Shown in pieces: positions 3,624 through 31,394 of a DNA stretch of 64,000 nt (positions are counted from its first letter, which is position 1; each line of letters opens with the position of its first letter). The position numbers were made by a program, and so were the translations under genes. The DNA comes from Candidatus Krumholzibacteriia bacterium. Its GTDB lineage: Bacteria > Krumholzibacteriota > Krumholzibacteriia > LZORAL124-64-63. The notes under the pieces were generated by a model. That model saw only the letters and a list, made by a program, of their open reading frames with translations, was not told where the DNA came from and did not search any database. The stretch is from assembly GCA_041908585.1 (NCBI GenBank), contig JAYRFB010000236.1, positions 8,277-72,276 of the forward strand, in the 5' to 3' direction.

Positions 3624-4103
3624 ATGCCCACCCTGACCCTTCCCCAGTTCGCTCCCGGCCAGCCCGCCTCGCAGGTCGATGCCTCCCTGCGCCAGGCCCT
3701 GGACGCCTGCGACCGGGCGCGCCAAAGCGCGGTACTATGGTTTGCGGAAGTCGCACGTCGCGGGCTGTACCGGCAGCTCGGCCACGCCAGCCTGCAGCTC
3801 TACGCCACTCAGGCGCTTGGCTTCAGTGACAATCGCTACCACCAGTTCAAGCGGCTGGCCGATGACCTCGACCGGTTGCCGGTCCTGCGTGAGGCCGTCG
3901 CGACCGGAGAGATCGGCTGGACCAAGGCGCAGCAGGTGGCCCGCGTGGCGACCGAGGCGACGCAAGCCGCGTGGGTGGAGAAAGTGGCTGCGACCGGACG
4001 GCGGGAGCTGGAGCGGCAGGTGCGGGACGCGCGCCAGGCGCAGCGGGCGTGGCAGACGCGGAAGCGGCGGCCGGTTGCGCCGGCGCAAGTCGAGGTGGGC
4101 TGA
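3624..4103 (+). CDS. DUF222-like N-terminal domain protein; possible truncated HNH-endonuclease remnant
   Basis: From MPTLTL... The segment WFAEVARRGLYRQLGHASLQLYATQALGFSDNRYHQFKRLADDLDRLPVLREAVATGEIGWTKAQQVARV matches the pattern of the N-terminal region of DUF222/HNH endonucleases. No HNH domain follows before the stop. An AT-rich island lies upstream. Confidence 0.5.
   Translation: MPTLTLPQFAPGQPASQVDASLRQALDACDRARQSAVLWFAEVARRGLYRQLGHASLQLYATQALGFSDNRYHQFKRLADDLDRLPVLREAVATGEIGWTKAQQVARVATEATQAAWVEKVAATGRRELERQVRDARQAQRAWQTRKRRPVAPAQVEVG
4075..4088. repeat. REP-like palindrome TTGCGCCGGCGCAA
   Basis: An exact 14-mer at the 3' end of the DUF222-like ORF, between convergent genes. Confidence 0.8.
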
Positions 4104-26684: not shown

Positions 26685-26700
26685 CTTGCGCCGGCGCAAG
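26685..26700. repeat. REP-like palindrome CTTGCGCCGGCGCAAG
   Basis: An exact 16-bp palindrome between the propeller gene start and the exonuclease gene stop. Confidence 0.8.
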
Positions 26701-26715
26701 TCGGTCACGCCCCGC

Positions 26716-28113
26716 TCATTCCGGCCGCAACCCCTCCGGCTGCGTATGGATCCACCCCCGCTCGCGCTGCCCAGCAATCACGTCGACCGGCTCCGTGCAG
26801 TGGAAGCGCAACAGCTCGCCGAGGGTGTTGAACCCCTGCATCTGCAGCCGCGTGACCATGCGCAGGAACAGCTCGGCGGTGACGAGCGCGTCGCCCAGGG
26901 CGGTGTGGCGGCCGTGCAGGTCCAATTGGTAGAGCTGCGCCAGGCTCTCCAGGTCCAGGCGTCCCATCGCCGGGTTCAGCAGCGAGGCCAGCCGCAGCGT
27001 GTCGATGAAGACGAAGTCCTCCCAGGGGCGGTCGTGGCGGCGGCACTCCTCGCGCAGGATCGTCAGGTCGAACGAGATGTTGTGGCCCACGACGACGCGG
27101 CCGCGCGCCAGGCGCTGGAAATCGGCCCACACCTCGGGGAACGCGCGCGCGTCCCTGACCATCGCGTCGGTGATGCCGTGCACGGCGGTCGAGGCGGGCG
27201 GGATGGGCACGCCGGGATCCACCAGGTCGTCCATCAGCCGGCTCTTGTAGAGGCGCGGGCCGTGCGCGCAGACGGCGCCCAGCGAGACGATGCGGTCGGT
27301 CGTCACGTCCAGGCCGGTGGTCTCGGTGTCGATGACGATGACGGGAACATCGTCCAGCCGCATCGCCAGATCCAGCGGGCCGGCGGCCGGCGGCACGTCG
27401 TGCAGCTTGAGGTCGAACTCGACGCCGGGCCGATGGCGGTCCAGCTCGACGGGCGGGAAGATGATCACCGCGCCCTCGTCGTCCGGCAGCAGCGCGATGC
27501 GGCCCTGCAGCGAGACGCCGTCCAGCCGCTCGAACACCGACTCGAGCGCGCGGCGCGCGCGCCGGGCCTTCTGCATCGCGGCCAGCACCGACTCGCGGCT
27601 GAGCGCCGCGAACAGCGAGGTGCCCACGCGGGCGCGCTCGGCCCCCAGCAGTTCGCGCGCGGTGCTGTTGAGCAGGCGGACCTGGCCCTGGTCGGTGATG
27701 ATGACCACGCCGCTGGCCAGGGAGCCCAGCACGGTGAGCAGCTTGTGGTCCGGGGCGTGGCGCTCGCGCGTGATCTGGTCCTGGTAGAGGCCCAGCGAGG
27801 CGAGCATCGACTCGACCTCCGGCGGCGTCCCCTGGCCGAGGGTCTTCGGCACCGCGGCGCCCTGGTCGGCCACCAGGTTCAGCACCGCGGTGCGCGCGCC
27901 CTCGATGCCGCGGCCCAGCCGGTCGGCCGCGCGCCAGCTGCGCCAGTACAGCGCCAGCGCCGCGGCGAAGGTGGCCGCCCCCACCACGAGCGGCAGCGGC
28001 GACAGCGGGCGGCGCATGATCACATCCGGCAGCAGCACCAGCGCCCCGGCCCCCGCGCAGACGCCGGCCCAGACCAGCGAGCGCTTGATCAGTCGGTGGG
28101 CGGGTTCGCGCAT
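26716..28113 (-). CDS. Membrane-anchored PAS-domain DEDDh 3'-5' exonuclease (DnaQ/epsilon-like)
   Basis: 465 aa with two N-terminal TM helices and a PAS-like segment (VVIITDQGQVRLLNSTARELLG). Exo motifs are VIDTETTGL, VVGHNISFDL and HTALGDALVTAELF. Confidence 0.85.
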   Translation of the reverse strand: MREPAHRLIKRSLVWAGVCAGAGALVLLPDVIMRRPLSPLPLVVGAATFAAALALYWRSWRAADRLGRGIEGARTAVLNLVADQGAAVPKTLGQGTPPEVESMLASLGLYQDQITRERHAPDHKLLTVLGSLASGVVIITDQGQVRLLNSTARELLGAERARVGTSLFAALSRESVLAAMQKARRARRALESVFERLDGVSLQGRIALLPDDEGAVIIFPPVELDRHRPGVEFDLKLHDVPPAAGPLDLAMRLDDVPVIVIDTETTGLDVTTDRIVSLGAVCAHGPRLYKSRLMDDLVDPGVPIPPASTAVHGITDAMVRDARAFPEVWADFQRLARGRVVVGHNISFDLTILREECRRHDRPWEDFVFIDTLRLASLLNPAMGRLDLESLAQLYQLDLHGRHTALGDALVTAELFLRMVTRLQMQGFNTLGELLRFHCTEPVDVIAGQRERGWIHTQPEGLRPE

Positions 28114-28273
28114 GGGGGGCGGCTCCGGGTCGGGTGGCCGGTCCGGCCCCGGCGGGGCCTTCGGCGGGGATCATAAGGGCCGGGCGGGGCGCTTCCAAGC
28201 GGGATGCGGGCAGCGGCACGGGGTGCCGGGATCGCATCGCCGCAGGTAACTGCTTGTCAAAATATGATTTGTC

Positions 28274-28350
28274 ATATTCCGCAGCCAATTGCGGAATATT
28301 CAAGACCATTCCGCAGTCAACTGCGGAATTATATTGACAATTCCGCAGCA
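28274..28350. promoter_or_regulatory. Phased operator array: two 22-bp palindromes plus a half-site, 32-bp period, in the divergent exonuclease / ATPase control region
   Basis: ATTCCGCAGCCAATTGCGGAAT (28276..28297), ATTCCGCAGTCAACTGCGGAAT (28308..28329, perfect 10-bp arms) and the half-site ATTCCGCAGCA (28340..28350). The third site lies between TTGACA (28334..28339) and GAAAAT (28357..28362). The ATG at 28369 lies where a transcript would start. Confidence 0.7.
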
Positions 28351-28368
28351 TCGTTCGAAAATGTCCAT

Positions 28369-29565
28369 ATGGAGACACGCAGGGTCTACCAGGCCATCGT
28401 CGAGGACCATCTGGAGCAGCATCGCCAGATGATCTTCGTCTCGGGTCCCCGTCAGGTGGGCAAGACCACCATCTGCCGCGGCCGGGCCGACCTTTACCTG
28501 GACTGGGACAACGAGGACCACCGCGCCGTGGTGCTGGCGGGGCCGGGGGCCGTCGCGCGCCGCGCCGGGCTGGAGGGGCTGGTCACGCGGGCGCCGGTGA
28601 TCGCCTTCGACGAACTGCACCGCTACCGGCGCTGGCGGGGATTCCTGAAGGGATTCTTCGACACCTACGAGCAGCGCTCGCGCGTCCTGGTCACCGGCTC
28701 GTCGCGCCTGGACCAGTATCGGCGAGGCGGCGACAGCCTGATGGGACGCTACTTCCCGCTGCGCATGCATCCGTTCAGCGTGGCGGAGTTGACGTCGCCG
28801 ACCCTGCCGTCGCAACCGGTGCGCGCGCCCGCCGCGCTGGCTGACGCGGACTGGCAGGCGCTGTGGGACCACGGCGGCTTCCCCGAGCCGTTCACGCGCC
28901 GCGCCGCCACCTTCACCACGCGCTGGCGCAACCTGCGCCGCACGCAGCTGCTGCGCGAGGACGTGCGCGACCTCACGCGCATCCAGGAGCTCGACCAGCT
29001 CGACATGCTCGAGCGCCTGCTGACGGACCGCTCGGGCGAACAGCTCGTCTACAGCTCGCTGGCCCGCGAGGTGCGCGTGAGCGAGAACACGATCCGGTCG
29101 TGGGTCGGCACGCTGTGCTCGCTGCACCACGGTTTCGTGGTCCGGCCCTGGTCGAAGAGCCTGACAGGAACTCTGCGCAAGGAGCCCCGCTGGTACCTGC
29201 GCGACTGGTCCGGCGTCGCCGACCCGGGCAAGCGCTTCGAGACGCTCTGCGCCTGCCACCTGCTCAAGGCCGTCGAGGGCTGGACGGACCTGGGCCTCGG
29301 CGAGTTCGAGTTGCGCTACATCCGCGACCGCCAGGGCCGCGAGGTCGATTTCGTCGTGGTGCGCGACGGCCGACCGTGGTTCCTGGCCGAAGCGAAGCTG
29401 TCGGACACCCGGCTGACGCCGGCCCTCCGGTCGTACCACGAGAAGACGGGTGCGCCGCACGCTTTCCAGATCGTGGCCGAGCTGCCCTTCGTCGATGCCG
29501 ACGCCTTCGCGCCGACCGGGCCCGTGGTGGTCCCGGCGCGCACGCTGTTGTCCCAGTTGCTGTAA
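28369..29565 (+). CDS. AAA+ ATPase (AAA_14-like) with DUF4143-type C-terminal region carrying a PD-(D/E)xK-like motif
   Basis: Start METRRVYQ. Walker A is FVSGPRQVGKTT and Walker B-like is VIAFDELH. The C-terminus reads GREVDFVVVRDGRPWFLAEAKLSD (D...E-x-K nuclease-like pattern). It lies 11 nt upstream of the next gene. Confidence 0.85.
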   Translation: METRRVYQAIVEDHLEQHRQMIFVSGPRQVGKTTICRGRADLYLDWDNEDHRAVVLAGPGAVARRAGLEGLVTRAPVIAFDELHRYRRWRGFLKGFFDTYEQRSRVLVTGSSRLDQYRRGGDSLMGRYFPLRMHPFSVAELTSPTLPSQPVRAPAALADADWQALWDHGGFPEPFTRRAATFTTRWRNLRRTQLLREDVRDLTRIQELDQLDMLERLLTDRSGEQLVYSSLAREVRVSENTIRSWVGTLCSLHHGFVVRPWSKSLTGTLRKEPRWYLRDWSGVADPGKRFETLCACHLLKAVEGWTDLGLGEFELRYIRDRQGREVDFVVVRDGRPWFLAEAKLSDTRLTPALRSYHEKTGAPHAFQIVAELPFVDADAFAPTGPVVVPARTLLSQLL

Positions 29566-29576
29566 GGGAGAGGCCC

Positions 29577-31394
29577 ATGATCCCCCGCCTCCAGGACTTC
29601 CTCCAGGGCCAGCACCCGTTCACGCTGCTGACCGAGAGCGAGCGCGAGCGCGTCGAGGCCGCCGCCACCGCCCGCGCGTTCCCCGACGGCGCGCGCATCC
29701 TGGAACAGGACGGTCCGCAGAGCACGTGCCTGTACCTGCTGGCCGGCGGCCAGGCGCGCCTGGTGCGCGACGGCGAGGAGCTGCAGGTGCTGGAGGAGGG
29801 CGACTGCTTCGGCTACCCGTCGATGATCAGCCGCTCGGCGCCCGCCTTCGACGTGGTGGCCACGGGTGAGGTGCGGGTCCACTGCGTGCCGGAAGCGGTG
29901 TTCCGCGGCCTGCTGGGCAACCGCGACTTCGCCGAGTTCTTCCTGCAGAGCCTGGGCGAGCGCCTGCGGCGCGTGACCGCCGGCGGCGTGACCGCGCTGG
30001 GCGGCGAGCTGACCACCGAGCTGGGCGACCTCGAGCTGCGCCGCGTCGTGCGCGTGGCCCCCGGCGCCACCGTGCAGCAGGCCGCCCGCGCGATGCGCGA
30101 CGCGCGCGACGACTTCGCGCTGGTCGGCGACGACGGCGACGAGATGCCGGGCATCGTCACCGACCACGACTTCCAGGTGAAGGTGCTGGCCGAGGGGCTG
30201 GGCCCGGACACCCCGGTAGCGCGCGTGATGACGCGCCCGCTCAAGACCCTGACCGCCGACACGCCCGTGCACGGCGCGCTGCTCTACATGCTCGAGGAGC
30301 GCATCCACCACCTGCCGGTGGTGCGCGACGGCGGCATCATCGGCGTGCTGACGGCCACCGACCTGCTGCGCCACCAGACCACCAACCCGCTCTATCTCAT
30401 GCGCCGCCTGGACCACCTGGACCGCGGCGAGTCTCTGGCCGCCTACGGGCGCGACGCCGCGGCGATGGTCGAACGCCTGTTCCGCGGCGGCCTGAAGGTG
30501 GGGCAGATCGGCCGCGTCTTCGCCAGCCTGAACGACGCGCTCATCCGCCGGCTGTGCAGGCTGGCCGAGGCCGAGCTGGGCCCGCCGCCGTGTCCCTATG
30601 CGTGGCTGGTCTTCGGTTCGGAAGGGCGGATGGAGCAGGCGCTGCTGACCGACCAGGACAACGCGCTGGTCTACGGCGACGACACGGCCGCGGCGAAGGA
30701 CTACTTCGCGAAGCTGGCCGCGCTGGTCGTCGCCGACCTGGTCACCGCCGGCTTCCCGCCCTGCCCCGGCGGCTGCATGGCCACCAACTGGAACCGGCCG
30801 CTGGGCGCGTGGCTGGAGACGGTGCGCGGCTGGATCGACGAGCCGACGCCCGACAATCTCATGGTCTCGTCGATCTTCTTCGACTTCCGCGCCGTCGCCG
30901 GCGCGCTGGATGTGGCGCCGCTGGCCGACCTGGCGGCCGGCGCCGCCGGCAACCAGCTCTTCATGGCGCACCTGGCGCGCGTCTCGCTGCGCTTCAAGCC
31001 GCCGCTGGGCCTGTTCCAGCAGATCCAGGCCACCGACGACAAGGTCGACCTGAAGAAGCGCGCCATCGCGCCGGTGGTCGCGGCCGCGCGCGTCTGGGGC
31101 CTGGAGGCGGGCACGCGCGCGCGTCCGACGCGCGAGCGCCTCGAGACCGCGATCGAGGCCGGCGTGGTCAGCCGCGACCTGGGCCAGACGCTGATCGAGA
31201 CCTACCGCTTCCTGCTGCAGCTGCGGCTGCGCGAGCAGCTGGCCGCGCTCGAGCGCGGCGAAGCGCCCGGCAACGACGTCAACGTCAAGGCGCTCTCTTC
31301 GCTGCAGCGACGGCACTTGAAGGACGCGTTCGGGGCGATCCGCGAGATGCAGGGGGCCGTGGCGCAGCGGTACCGGACGAACATGCTGGGGTGA
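29577..31394 (+). CDS. cNMP-binding / CBS-pair / DUF294 putative nucleotidyltransferase signalling protein
   Basis: 605 aa with strong RBS AAGGGAGAGG. It has an N-terminal cyclic-nucleotide-binding fold (EGDCFGYPSMI), two CBS motifs, a GlnD-like NTase region (WLVFGSEGRMEQALLTDQDNALVY) and a DUF294_C-like tail. Confidence 0.9.
   Translation: MIPRLQDFLQGQHPFTLLTESERERVEAAATARAFPDGARILEQDGPQSTCLYLLAGGQARLVRDGEELQVLEEGDCFGYPSMISRSAPAFDVVATGEVRVHCVPEAVFRGLLGNRDFAEFFLQSLGERLRRVTAGGVTALGGELTTELGDLELRRVVRVAPGATVQQAARAMRDARDDFALVGDDGDEMPGIVTDHDFQVKVLAEGLGPDTPVARVMTRPLKTLTADTPVHGALLYMLEERIHHLPVVRDGGIIGVLTATDLLRHQTTNPLYLMRRLDHLDRGESLAAYGRDAAAMVERLFRGGLKVGQIGRVFASLNDALIRRLCRLAEAELGPPPCPYAWLVFGSEGRMEQALLTDQDNALVYGDDTAAAKDYFAKLAALVVADLVTAGFPPCPGGCMATNWNRPLGAWLETVRGWIDEPTPDNLMVSSIFFDFRAVAGALDVAPLADLAAGAAGNQLFMAHLARVSLRFKPPLGLFQQIQATDDKVDLKKRAIAPVVAAARVWGLEAGTRARPTRERLETAIEAGVVSRDLGQTLIETYRFLLQLRLREQLAALERGEAPGNDVNVKALSSLQRRHLKDAFGAIREMQGAVAQRYRTNMLG

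Follow-up and report, generated by a model that had tools for sequence, protein, structure and literature searches.

What reads the phased palindromes that overlap the promoter of a candidate defence gene in a Candidatus Krumholzibacteriia bacterium, and with what effect on that gene and the one behind it? The window analyzed here is a 64,000-nucleotide stretch of contig JAYRFB010000236.1 (GenBank assembly GCA_041908585.1), and its own genome is G000 in our labelling of loci and genomes. Upstream of a plus-strand gene (28369-29565) for a 398-amino-acid ATPase-nuclease, which carries AAA_14 and DUF4143 domains and is the PADLOC candidate PDC-S01, the window holds an array of two 22-bp palindromes and a third half-site. 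We favor, with moderate confidence, the reading that this array is a self-operator through which the product of the AAA_14-DUF4143 (PDC-S01) gene would repress its own leaderless promoter.

The anatomy of the array can be read directly from the DNA. Palindrome 1 (ATTCCGCAGCCAATTGCGGAAT, 28276-28297, that is ATTCCGCAG-CCAA-TTGCGGAAT) lies within a first 32-bp unit at 28276-28307, and palindrome 2 (ATTCCGCAGTCAACTGCGGAAT, 28308-28329, a perfect ATTCCGCAG-TCAA-CTGCGGAAT) within a second unit at 28308-28339 that ends in the -35 hexamer. The third half-site ATTCCGCAG (28340-28348, plus strand) stands in the promoter spacer and opens a third unit (28340-28371), a degenerate full copy whose right arm has turned into the -10 hexamer and which ends at the ATG. 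The starts of the half-sites at 28276, 28308 and 28340 are exactly 32 and 32 bp apart. A repeat search gave five half-sites of alternating orientation with centre spacings of 13, 19, 13 and 19 bp, so that the inverted pair CTGCGGAAT-N10-ATTCCGCAG (28321-28348) brackets the -35; this pair is position-conserved in orthologues and is taken here as the core operator. A degenerate dyad core, CCGCAGGTAACTGC (28240-28253), lies out of phase 39 bp upstream of the core of palindrome 1; like the palindromes and the core operator it has no strand. With up to three mismatches allowed, the 22-bp pattern has two matches in the window against 0.01 expected, and chance is no explanation for the palindromes. 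The GC content is 0.42 over the array and 0.72 genome-wide (71.7% GC). Flanking repeats of a mobile element are ruled out by the finding of no motif copies downstream of the ATPase gene, and an RNA element by an Rfam search at the array in which no family reached the threshold.

A promoter lies within this array. The -35 hexamer TTGACA (28334-28339) and the -10 hexamer GAAAAT (28357-28362), both on the plus strand and found by consensus scan, match 10 of 12 consensus positions as TTGACA-17-GAAAAT, where shuffles give 0.1. The -10 hexamer ends 6 nt before the ATG at 28369, which places the predicted transcript start at or next to the A of that codon, and the intervening GTCCAT is without a Shine-Dalgarno sequence. 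The mRNA of the ATPase gene is accordingly predicted to be leaderless and to start at the ATG. This geometry between -10 and start is position-conserved among orthologues, and a promoter abutting an in-frame start is rare in the genome (17 of 5,495 long open frames), two of the three best such frames being the array ATPase gene and its paralogue on contig C196. An earlier note made from the window's letters had described palindromes and a third half-site phased every 32 bp, the last of them filling the spacer between TTGACA and GAAAAT, all within an AT-rich patch of a high-GC genome and with an ATG close after a -10-like hexamer. These descriptions are confirmed, and the probable leaderless promoter that it proposed is supported by the conserved geometry and its rarity. 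The regulon search that it suggested gave a different outcome, with the 22-bp pattern confined to the array locus across the whole 3.78-Mb assembly, a metagenome-assembled genome (MAG) that is 84% complete; there is no regulon.

The motif is directly observed to travel with the ATPase gene across phyla. Orthologues of the gene are patchy, being present in 10 of 61 related genomes and in one of seven other species of the genus. An exact motif scan over one genome per GTDB species returned 46 matches, mostly terminator hairpins, coding sequence or a Smithella repeat, the bulk of which is chance; only three are relevant, namely L088 (the sister species G006), L097 and L111. The latter two sit directly upstream of ATPase orthologues in other phyla. 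L097, from a gammaproteobacterial MAG (Ca. Azotimanducaceae; 59% identity), reads palindrome-AGTA-TTGACC-ATTCCGCAGT...AATAAT-7 nt-ATG, while L111, from a Kiritimatiellia MAG (57% identity), has two palindromes 32 bp apart followed by TTGACA-17-GAAAAT-7 nt-ATG. The same pattern recurs at L007 (another genus, 71%) and L186 (a metagenome contig, 57%). The flanking genes of these four loci are unrelated and the ATPase is the sole gene in common; on this comparison, operator and ATPase gene are inherited together in unrelated genomic contexts. In a scan of the wider family with up to two mismatches, nine of the 12 matches outside the genus fall inside genes and look like chance. A tblastx comparison of the locus flanks was uninformative in this high-GC DNA.

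The layout of the promoter can also be followed beyond the orthologues. Relatives, paralogues and 80 metagenome contigs supplied 118 homologue loci that are non-identical and span several phyla, and dinucleotide shuffles served as the null model for layout counts. An 8-nt inverted repeat is found in the last 75 nt before the start at 96 of the 118 loci, against 32 +/- 4.5 (maximum 43) in shuffles. A full sigma-70-like promoter ends 4-9 nt before the assigned start at no fewer than 37 of 118, against 1.1 (maximum 5); since the start codons were assigned by alignment and are noisy, these leaderless counts are lower bounds. The bracket pair around the -35 is the best-conserved part among relatives. 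Within the orthologous clade (27 loci, at least 43% identity) it is fixed at -47/-48 from the start codon, reading TGCGGAAT-N10-ATTCCGCA in the window and CGTAAAAT-N10-ATTTTACG in the largest group. When the 100 nt before the start are compared with themselves, similarity has a sharp peak at a lag of 32, with a value of 0.389 in the clade (window excluded) and 0.332 in the other 91 homologues over a background of ~0.26 at other lags. Thus, the 32-bp phase is the unit length of the family's promoter and not a quirk of one locus. Judged by these directly observed regularities, the layout is a family trait: half-sites in inverted orientation flank the -35, the unit measures 32 bp and the -10 adjoins the start codon.

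Which part of the protein could read such sites? The gene product matches PF13173 (AAA_14; E = 6.8e-21, residues 19-141), PF13635 (DUF4143; E = 7.1e-21, residues 197-344) and the PADLOC PDC-S01 profile PDLC04790 (E = 6.3e-47, residues 4-349). Its plus-strand sequence encodes a Walker A motif, GPRQVGKT (28444-28467), and a PD-(D/E)XK-like motif, EVDFVVV...AEAK (29341-29397). An AlphaFold model (predicted local distance difference test score, pLDDT, of 71; seven sequences in the input alignment) consists of an AAA+ core, a winged helix-turn-helix and an alpha/beta unit. The modelled winged helix-turn-helix, which we propose as the half-site reader, spans residues 203-277 (28975-29199), with helices at 203-219, 228-235 and 239-251 and a wing at 255-277. 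The model places the recognition helix SENTIRSWVGTLC (residues 238-250; 29080-29118), which begins SENTIRSW, between the AAA+ and PD-(D/E)XK-like domains. The alpha-beta-beta-beta-alpha-beta unit modelled at residues 286-369 fits the assignment of DUF4143 to the PD-(D/E)XK fold (PMC3424549). A sequence search for a solved structure related to the ATPase returned none, and a fold search gave only generic AAA+ matches (clamp-loader and ORC/Cdc6-type) together with one weak match to Cdn1.

The recognition helix and the half-site covary, as is directly seen when helix classes are set beside their operators. Helices of the type (S/A)ENT go with the half-site ATTCCGCAG at five of five loci, SV/LDT with ATTTTACGAT in the largest group, SQDT with ATTCCACGAT at L125 and GEIT with ATTCCATAT at L127. 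When the class half-sites of SENT (ATTCCGCAG), SQDT (ATTCCACGA) and SVDT (ATTTTACGA) are compared, a two-position pattern holds over the three helix classes, in which E or Q accompanies CC and V or L accompanies TT, while N accompanies GCAG and D accompanies ACGA. More distant classes have other sites, namely AHET with TTTACTCATGAGTAAA, SHKT with (A)AAATACTCG (also given as GAGTATTTT), SPATVRGW with TGTACAAT and SRTTV.DY with direct repeats of CAATTGGACG. In a maximum-likelihood tree the SENT group and L127 form one clade (support 96/93), and L125 is nested in the SVDT clade (99/96); the V-to-Q change of the helix and the TT-to-CC change of the half-site therefore fall together on one branch. 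We have moderate confidence that the DNA-reading residues change when the operator changes, the independent switches being few. L011 was considered as a second SQD-type case and dropped, its promoter being atypical and its operator assignment ambiguous. One co-transferred regulator for each class (at least eight classes) would be far less economical than self-recognition. Most likely, then, the ATPase's own DNA-binding domain reads the half-sites, and the suggestion of the earlier note that the binder is the ATPase's C-terminal module has good comparative support, since the motif accompanies the gene from phylum to phylum and the half-site changes with the helix.

The mechanism that we propose is as follows. 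The promoter would consist of 32-bp units in tandem, in each of which the 9-bp half-site ATTCCGCAG forms a dyad, and the winged helix-turn-helix of the ATPase, with its SENTIRSW helix, would bind these half-sites as a dimer or higher oligomer. Because 32 bp is about three helical turns, the oligomers would align along a single face of the double helix. With sites on either side of the -35 and in the spacer, a promoter whose bracket pair and spacer half-site are occupied would be closed to RNA polymerase. In this way the ATPase gene would repress both itself and the co-transcribed gene downstream, and an mRNA beginning at the ATG would leave control to transcription initiation alone. Binding, repression as the direction of the effect, the oligomeric state and the start of the transcript are what we infer here from sequence comparison.

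The downstream gene (29577-31394, plus strand) encodes a nucleotidyltransferase with cyclic nucleotide monophosphate (cNMP)-binding, CBS and DUF294 domains. Its ATG, behind GGGAGAGG, lies only 11 nt past the ATPase stop, and by this spacing the ATPase and cNMP-CBS-DUF294 genes form one operon under the same promoter. The ATPase gene lies outside any evident defence island and is found in this operon instead. Upstream of the array, on the minus strand, is a divergent gene (26716-28113) for an exonuclease of the DEDDh (RNase_T) type with transmembrane and PAS regions, for which the promoter scan gave a promoter-like site of its own, TTGGAA-17-TATGAT (28198-28170, minus strand). The neighbors of the array are thus the exonuclease, the ATPase and the DUF294 gene, and the earlier note was right that no classical repressor gene is adjacent. 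Around the exonuclease/DUF294 pair the window has a porin O/P gene and a phosphate-related cluster, while in the relatives L222 (4441-6821) and L225 (4395-6809) the pair is beside genes for an SSF-type symporter, a DUF4212 protein and acetyl-CoA synthetase. Such an acetate-linked neighborhood is the known setting of the pair in proteobacteria.

The alleles of this locus within the genus, which we extended through close DUF294 homologues, bear on the self-operator from both sides. The operon arrangement with the ATPase present is found in G000, G005 and L223. In L215 the order is promoter and ATPase, an opposite-strand gene of 174 amino acids, a second promoter copy and DUF294; here an intact ATPase has retained its own palindromes, and the dyads at the second promoter (L215-P2) are decayed. 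In G003 the ATPase is dead through an internal deletion that fuses its first 13 codons to the C-terminal ...GWTDLGISE (L023, reverse strand, ~1270-1350); downstream follow an unrelated minus-strand gene and a second promoter copy before DUF294, and the dyads at both positions are decayed. The ATPase is absent and palindrome 1 kept in G006, L216/217, L218/219 and G001/L220/221, and the dyads are half decayed in L222 (82%), where the ATPase is also absent. The contrast between G003 and L215 counts in favor of the self-operator, but over all alleles the relation of operator decay to loss of the regulator is mixed, with decayed dyads in G003, at L215-P2 and in L222 and conserved ones in G006, L216, L218 and G001, where the gene is missing. 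In the sister species G006, whose flanking genes are 96-98% identical in DNA sequence to those of G000, window positions 28142-29572 are replaced by ~253 bp (L022, 2925-3177) that keep ATTCCGCAGGCAACTGCGGAAT and, at a distance of 32 bp, ATGCCGCGGCACATTGCGGAAT with GGTCTTGACC behind it; this dyad stretch is ~95 nt upstream of the DUF294 gene. In other genera (L224 and L225, 70%) DUF294 has no dyads before it, and because of this absence the motif evidently came into the genus with the ATPase cassette. The cassette is a clean presence/absence difference between G000 and G006, and the distribution of the two allele types over the genus is scattered; this suggests that species exchange them by recombination.

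Several of these observations weigh against self-regulation and limit how firmly it can be held. Four ATPase-less lineages keep palindrome 1 at 21-22 of 22 bases, including the central GCAA, and keep the 32-bp phase before DUF294, whereas the flanking columns are only ~60% alike. In G001 (20 contigs) and G006, both 95% complete, only paralogues of 28-34% identity were found and no SENT-type winged helix. This conservation argues for selection by some other reader, or for a further function of the sites, and for that reason our confidence in pure self-regulation goes no further than moderate. The covariation is a correlation, partly confounded and inflated by shared descent, with about three or four independent switches in a close clade, and the distant operator class TTTACTCATGAGTAAA is common to proteins with different first helix residues. 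The structure model of the ATPase is of moderate quality, G005 and L223 are without the spacer half-site, and L011 is atypical. A rival idea, which we consider rather unlikely, is that a separate, genus-conserved factor is the main reader of the 22-bp dyads and controls the DUF294/exonuclease module, with the ATPase merely under that control or sharing its sites. A candidate would be a dimeric helix-turn-helix regulator, and the 5-6-5 core CCGCA-N6-TGCGG would suit a CRP/FNR-type protein. Besides the near-invariant palindrome 1, the ATPase-less alleles hold palindrome 2 in part, and their dyads lie, in a by-eye reading, at about -43.5/-75.5 from a conserved extended -10 (TGGTATCGT), which is roughly an activator-type geometry. 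The flanking genes of G000 and G006 are 97-98% identical, so that such a factor would be expected in the window's genome too; by parsimony the second reader would also be present there. Yet no gene for it was found, there being no SENT-type winged helix in G001 or G006 and no regulator beside any locus. In two other phyla the motif is found with the ATPase although DUF294 is missing; its absence before DUF294 elsewhere means that this is no old DUF294 regulon; the site fits a layout that the whole family shares, with a separate site for each subfamily; and the dyads have decayed in ATPase-less L222 and in alleles with a dead or displaced ATPase. The trans factor that the earlier note had offered as its alternative stays alive through the conserved palindromes of the ATPase-less sister alleles, but the candidate gene that it calls for did not come to light.

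Two further explanations fare much worse on the same evidence. Paired sites three helical turns apart are the classical arrangement of NtrC, as at glnAp2, and an enhancer-binding protein of the NtrC type, acting with sigma-54, could use the dyads as its upstream activator sequence, as is the case in further genera of this family. Near-identical sites, ATT(C/T)CGCAG-N4-CTGCG(A/G)AAT, do occur as pairs with a spacing of 31 bp in genera g17 and g8 (L036, L034, L039), ~110 bp from GGAAC-N5-TTGCA or TGGCCT-N5-TTGCT promoters; one look-alike pair, in G098, adjoins an NtrC-type gene, and G023 and G080 carry such pairs without having any AAA_14 gene. In the window, however, no -24/-12 element (TGGCACG-N4-TTGCW, up to three mismatches) is found between 26537 and 28741, the sites overlap a strong sigma-70-type promoter, and the best activator homologue in G000 and G001 is 55% identical with the recognition helix SERNLRYKL rather than TESGLRYKL. 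We regard this explanation as the least probable of all, and the likeness of the window operator to a sigma-54 enhancer motif is probably coincidental. The look-alike loci themselves, L036 (G023), L034 (G080) and L039/L198 7125-7178 (G098), lie upstream of DUF2202 genes or genes for small secreted proteins with Ca-binding repeats, the one in G098 being beside a histidine kinase/NtrC-type pair; together they are a probable enhancer regulon. No ATPase remnants were found at the look-alike sites of g17 and g8. Very improbable, too, is structural or recombinational DNA without a dedicated binder, such as tandem duplication scars, cruciform DNA or sequence through which the cassette is gained and lost. 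It is true that, relative to G006, the ATPase cassette (28142-29572) is an insertion or deletion, that the genus has a scattered mixture of alleles with it and without it, and that the promoter is visibly built of tandem 32-bp units. Against this stand an exact 9-mer conserved between phyla at 57-59% protein identity, a register fixed to the -35 and -10, and a half-site that covaries with the recognition helix, together with the lack of downstream copies and of any Rfam match. The self-operator remains our preferred reading.

Among known systems, the window protein resembles PDC-S01 members in matching the PADLOC models and both Pfam domains, and in joining an ATPase to a PD-(D/E)XK-like domain. 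In function, C-protein/C-box control of restriction-modification operons and the AAA+ initiators come closest, although by this comparison membership in either fails on defining features. C-proteins such as C.PvuII and C.AhdI have tandem dyad operators at or upstream of their own -35 and are autoregulated, and the transcripts of C.PvuII are leaderless. The window shares the tandem dyads at its own promoter's -35 and the proposed autoregulation. C-proteins, however, are small Xre-type helix-turn-helix dimers that both activate and repress, whereas the putative reader here is an AAA+ ATPase of 398 amino acids whose winged helix is internal and which also has a nuclease-like domain; unlike a C-box restriction-modification system, the locus has no Xre-type controller, methyltransferase or endonuclease pair, its neighbors being the exonuclease, ATPase and DUF294 genes. 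DnaA and archaeal Orc1/Cdc6 likewise combine an AAA+ module with a DNA-reading helix, and they bind phased repeats that are set in AT-rich DNA directly before the gene for the protein itself, but in the window evidence of an origin is lacking, the repeats lie inside the promoter core, a PD-(D/E)XK-like domain is present and sequence similarity is undetectable. NtrC-type enhancers resemble the window's two 22-bp dyads in their spacing of 32 bp, or about three turns, and differ in the -24/-12 promoter, which is missing here, in the overlap of the window's sites with a sigma-70-type promoter and in the helix of the local activator homologue.

The genome and its relatives hold further repeats near genes of this family. 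G000 has three more AAA_14/DUF4143 paralogues, each with a different private repeat. The first (L004, C196:1036-1866) has ATTGTG...CACAAT around TTGACA and a leaderless-type GATACT-7-ATG, the second (L005, C230:1105-1833) has TGTACAATTC...GAATTGTACA and a Shine-Dalgarno sequence, and the third (L006, C166:24956-25480) contains an in-frame TGA and is probably a pseudogene. At L045 and L049 (G001 and G003), where the helix is SRTTV.DY, the repeats are direct and not inverted, with CAATTGGACG every 22 bp in a series that ends in TTGCAA-17-GACAAT-7-ATG. A separate palindrome, TTGCGCCGGCGCAA, occurs at 26685-26700 in the window and also at 4075, 54049, 58562 and 61719, with 75 copies in the assembly against 0.05 expected; it is a family of extragenic palindromes resembling repetitive extragenic palindromic (REP) elements, often just outside genes and also upstream of several AAA_14 paralogues in the genus.

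It is important to consider what the locus may mean for the family as a whole. PDC-S01 (COG1373) ranks among the commonest candidate defence genes of bacteria and archaea, and a survey puts its copies at tens of thousands (PMC12988326). Our full-text literature searches on DUF4143, COG1373, PF13173, PF13635 and PDC-S01 returned no account of regulation or DNA specificity. The novel features of this locus are that the ATPase gene shares an operon with DUF294, that sister species have orphan operators and that helix and half-site follow a two-position pattern. If each copy has its own operator that is read by its own winged helix, the family would be one of sequence-specific DNA-binding ATPase-nucleases, the sequence recognized by each member could be predicted from its promoter, and simple binding and helix-swap experiments would become possible. 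The operator would also govern a nucleotidyltransferase gene of a nucleotide-sensing kind, and it survives in relatives that have no ATPase, which makes the locus a natural test of a second reader. A wider view, which we put forward as doubtful, is that PDC-S01 ATPase-nucleases are sequence-specific readers whose operator has here been exapted by the host for the DUF294 gene of an acetate-linked module, with a second, recruited reader and with alleles exchanged between species. In such a case, a site that came from a defence-type cassette would have been kept under selection after loss of the ATPase, and this would be a regulatory exaptation of a selfish gene's operator.

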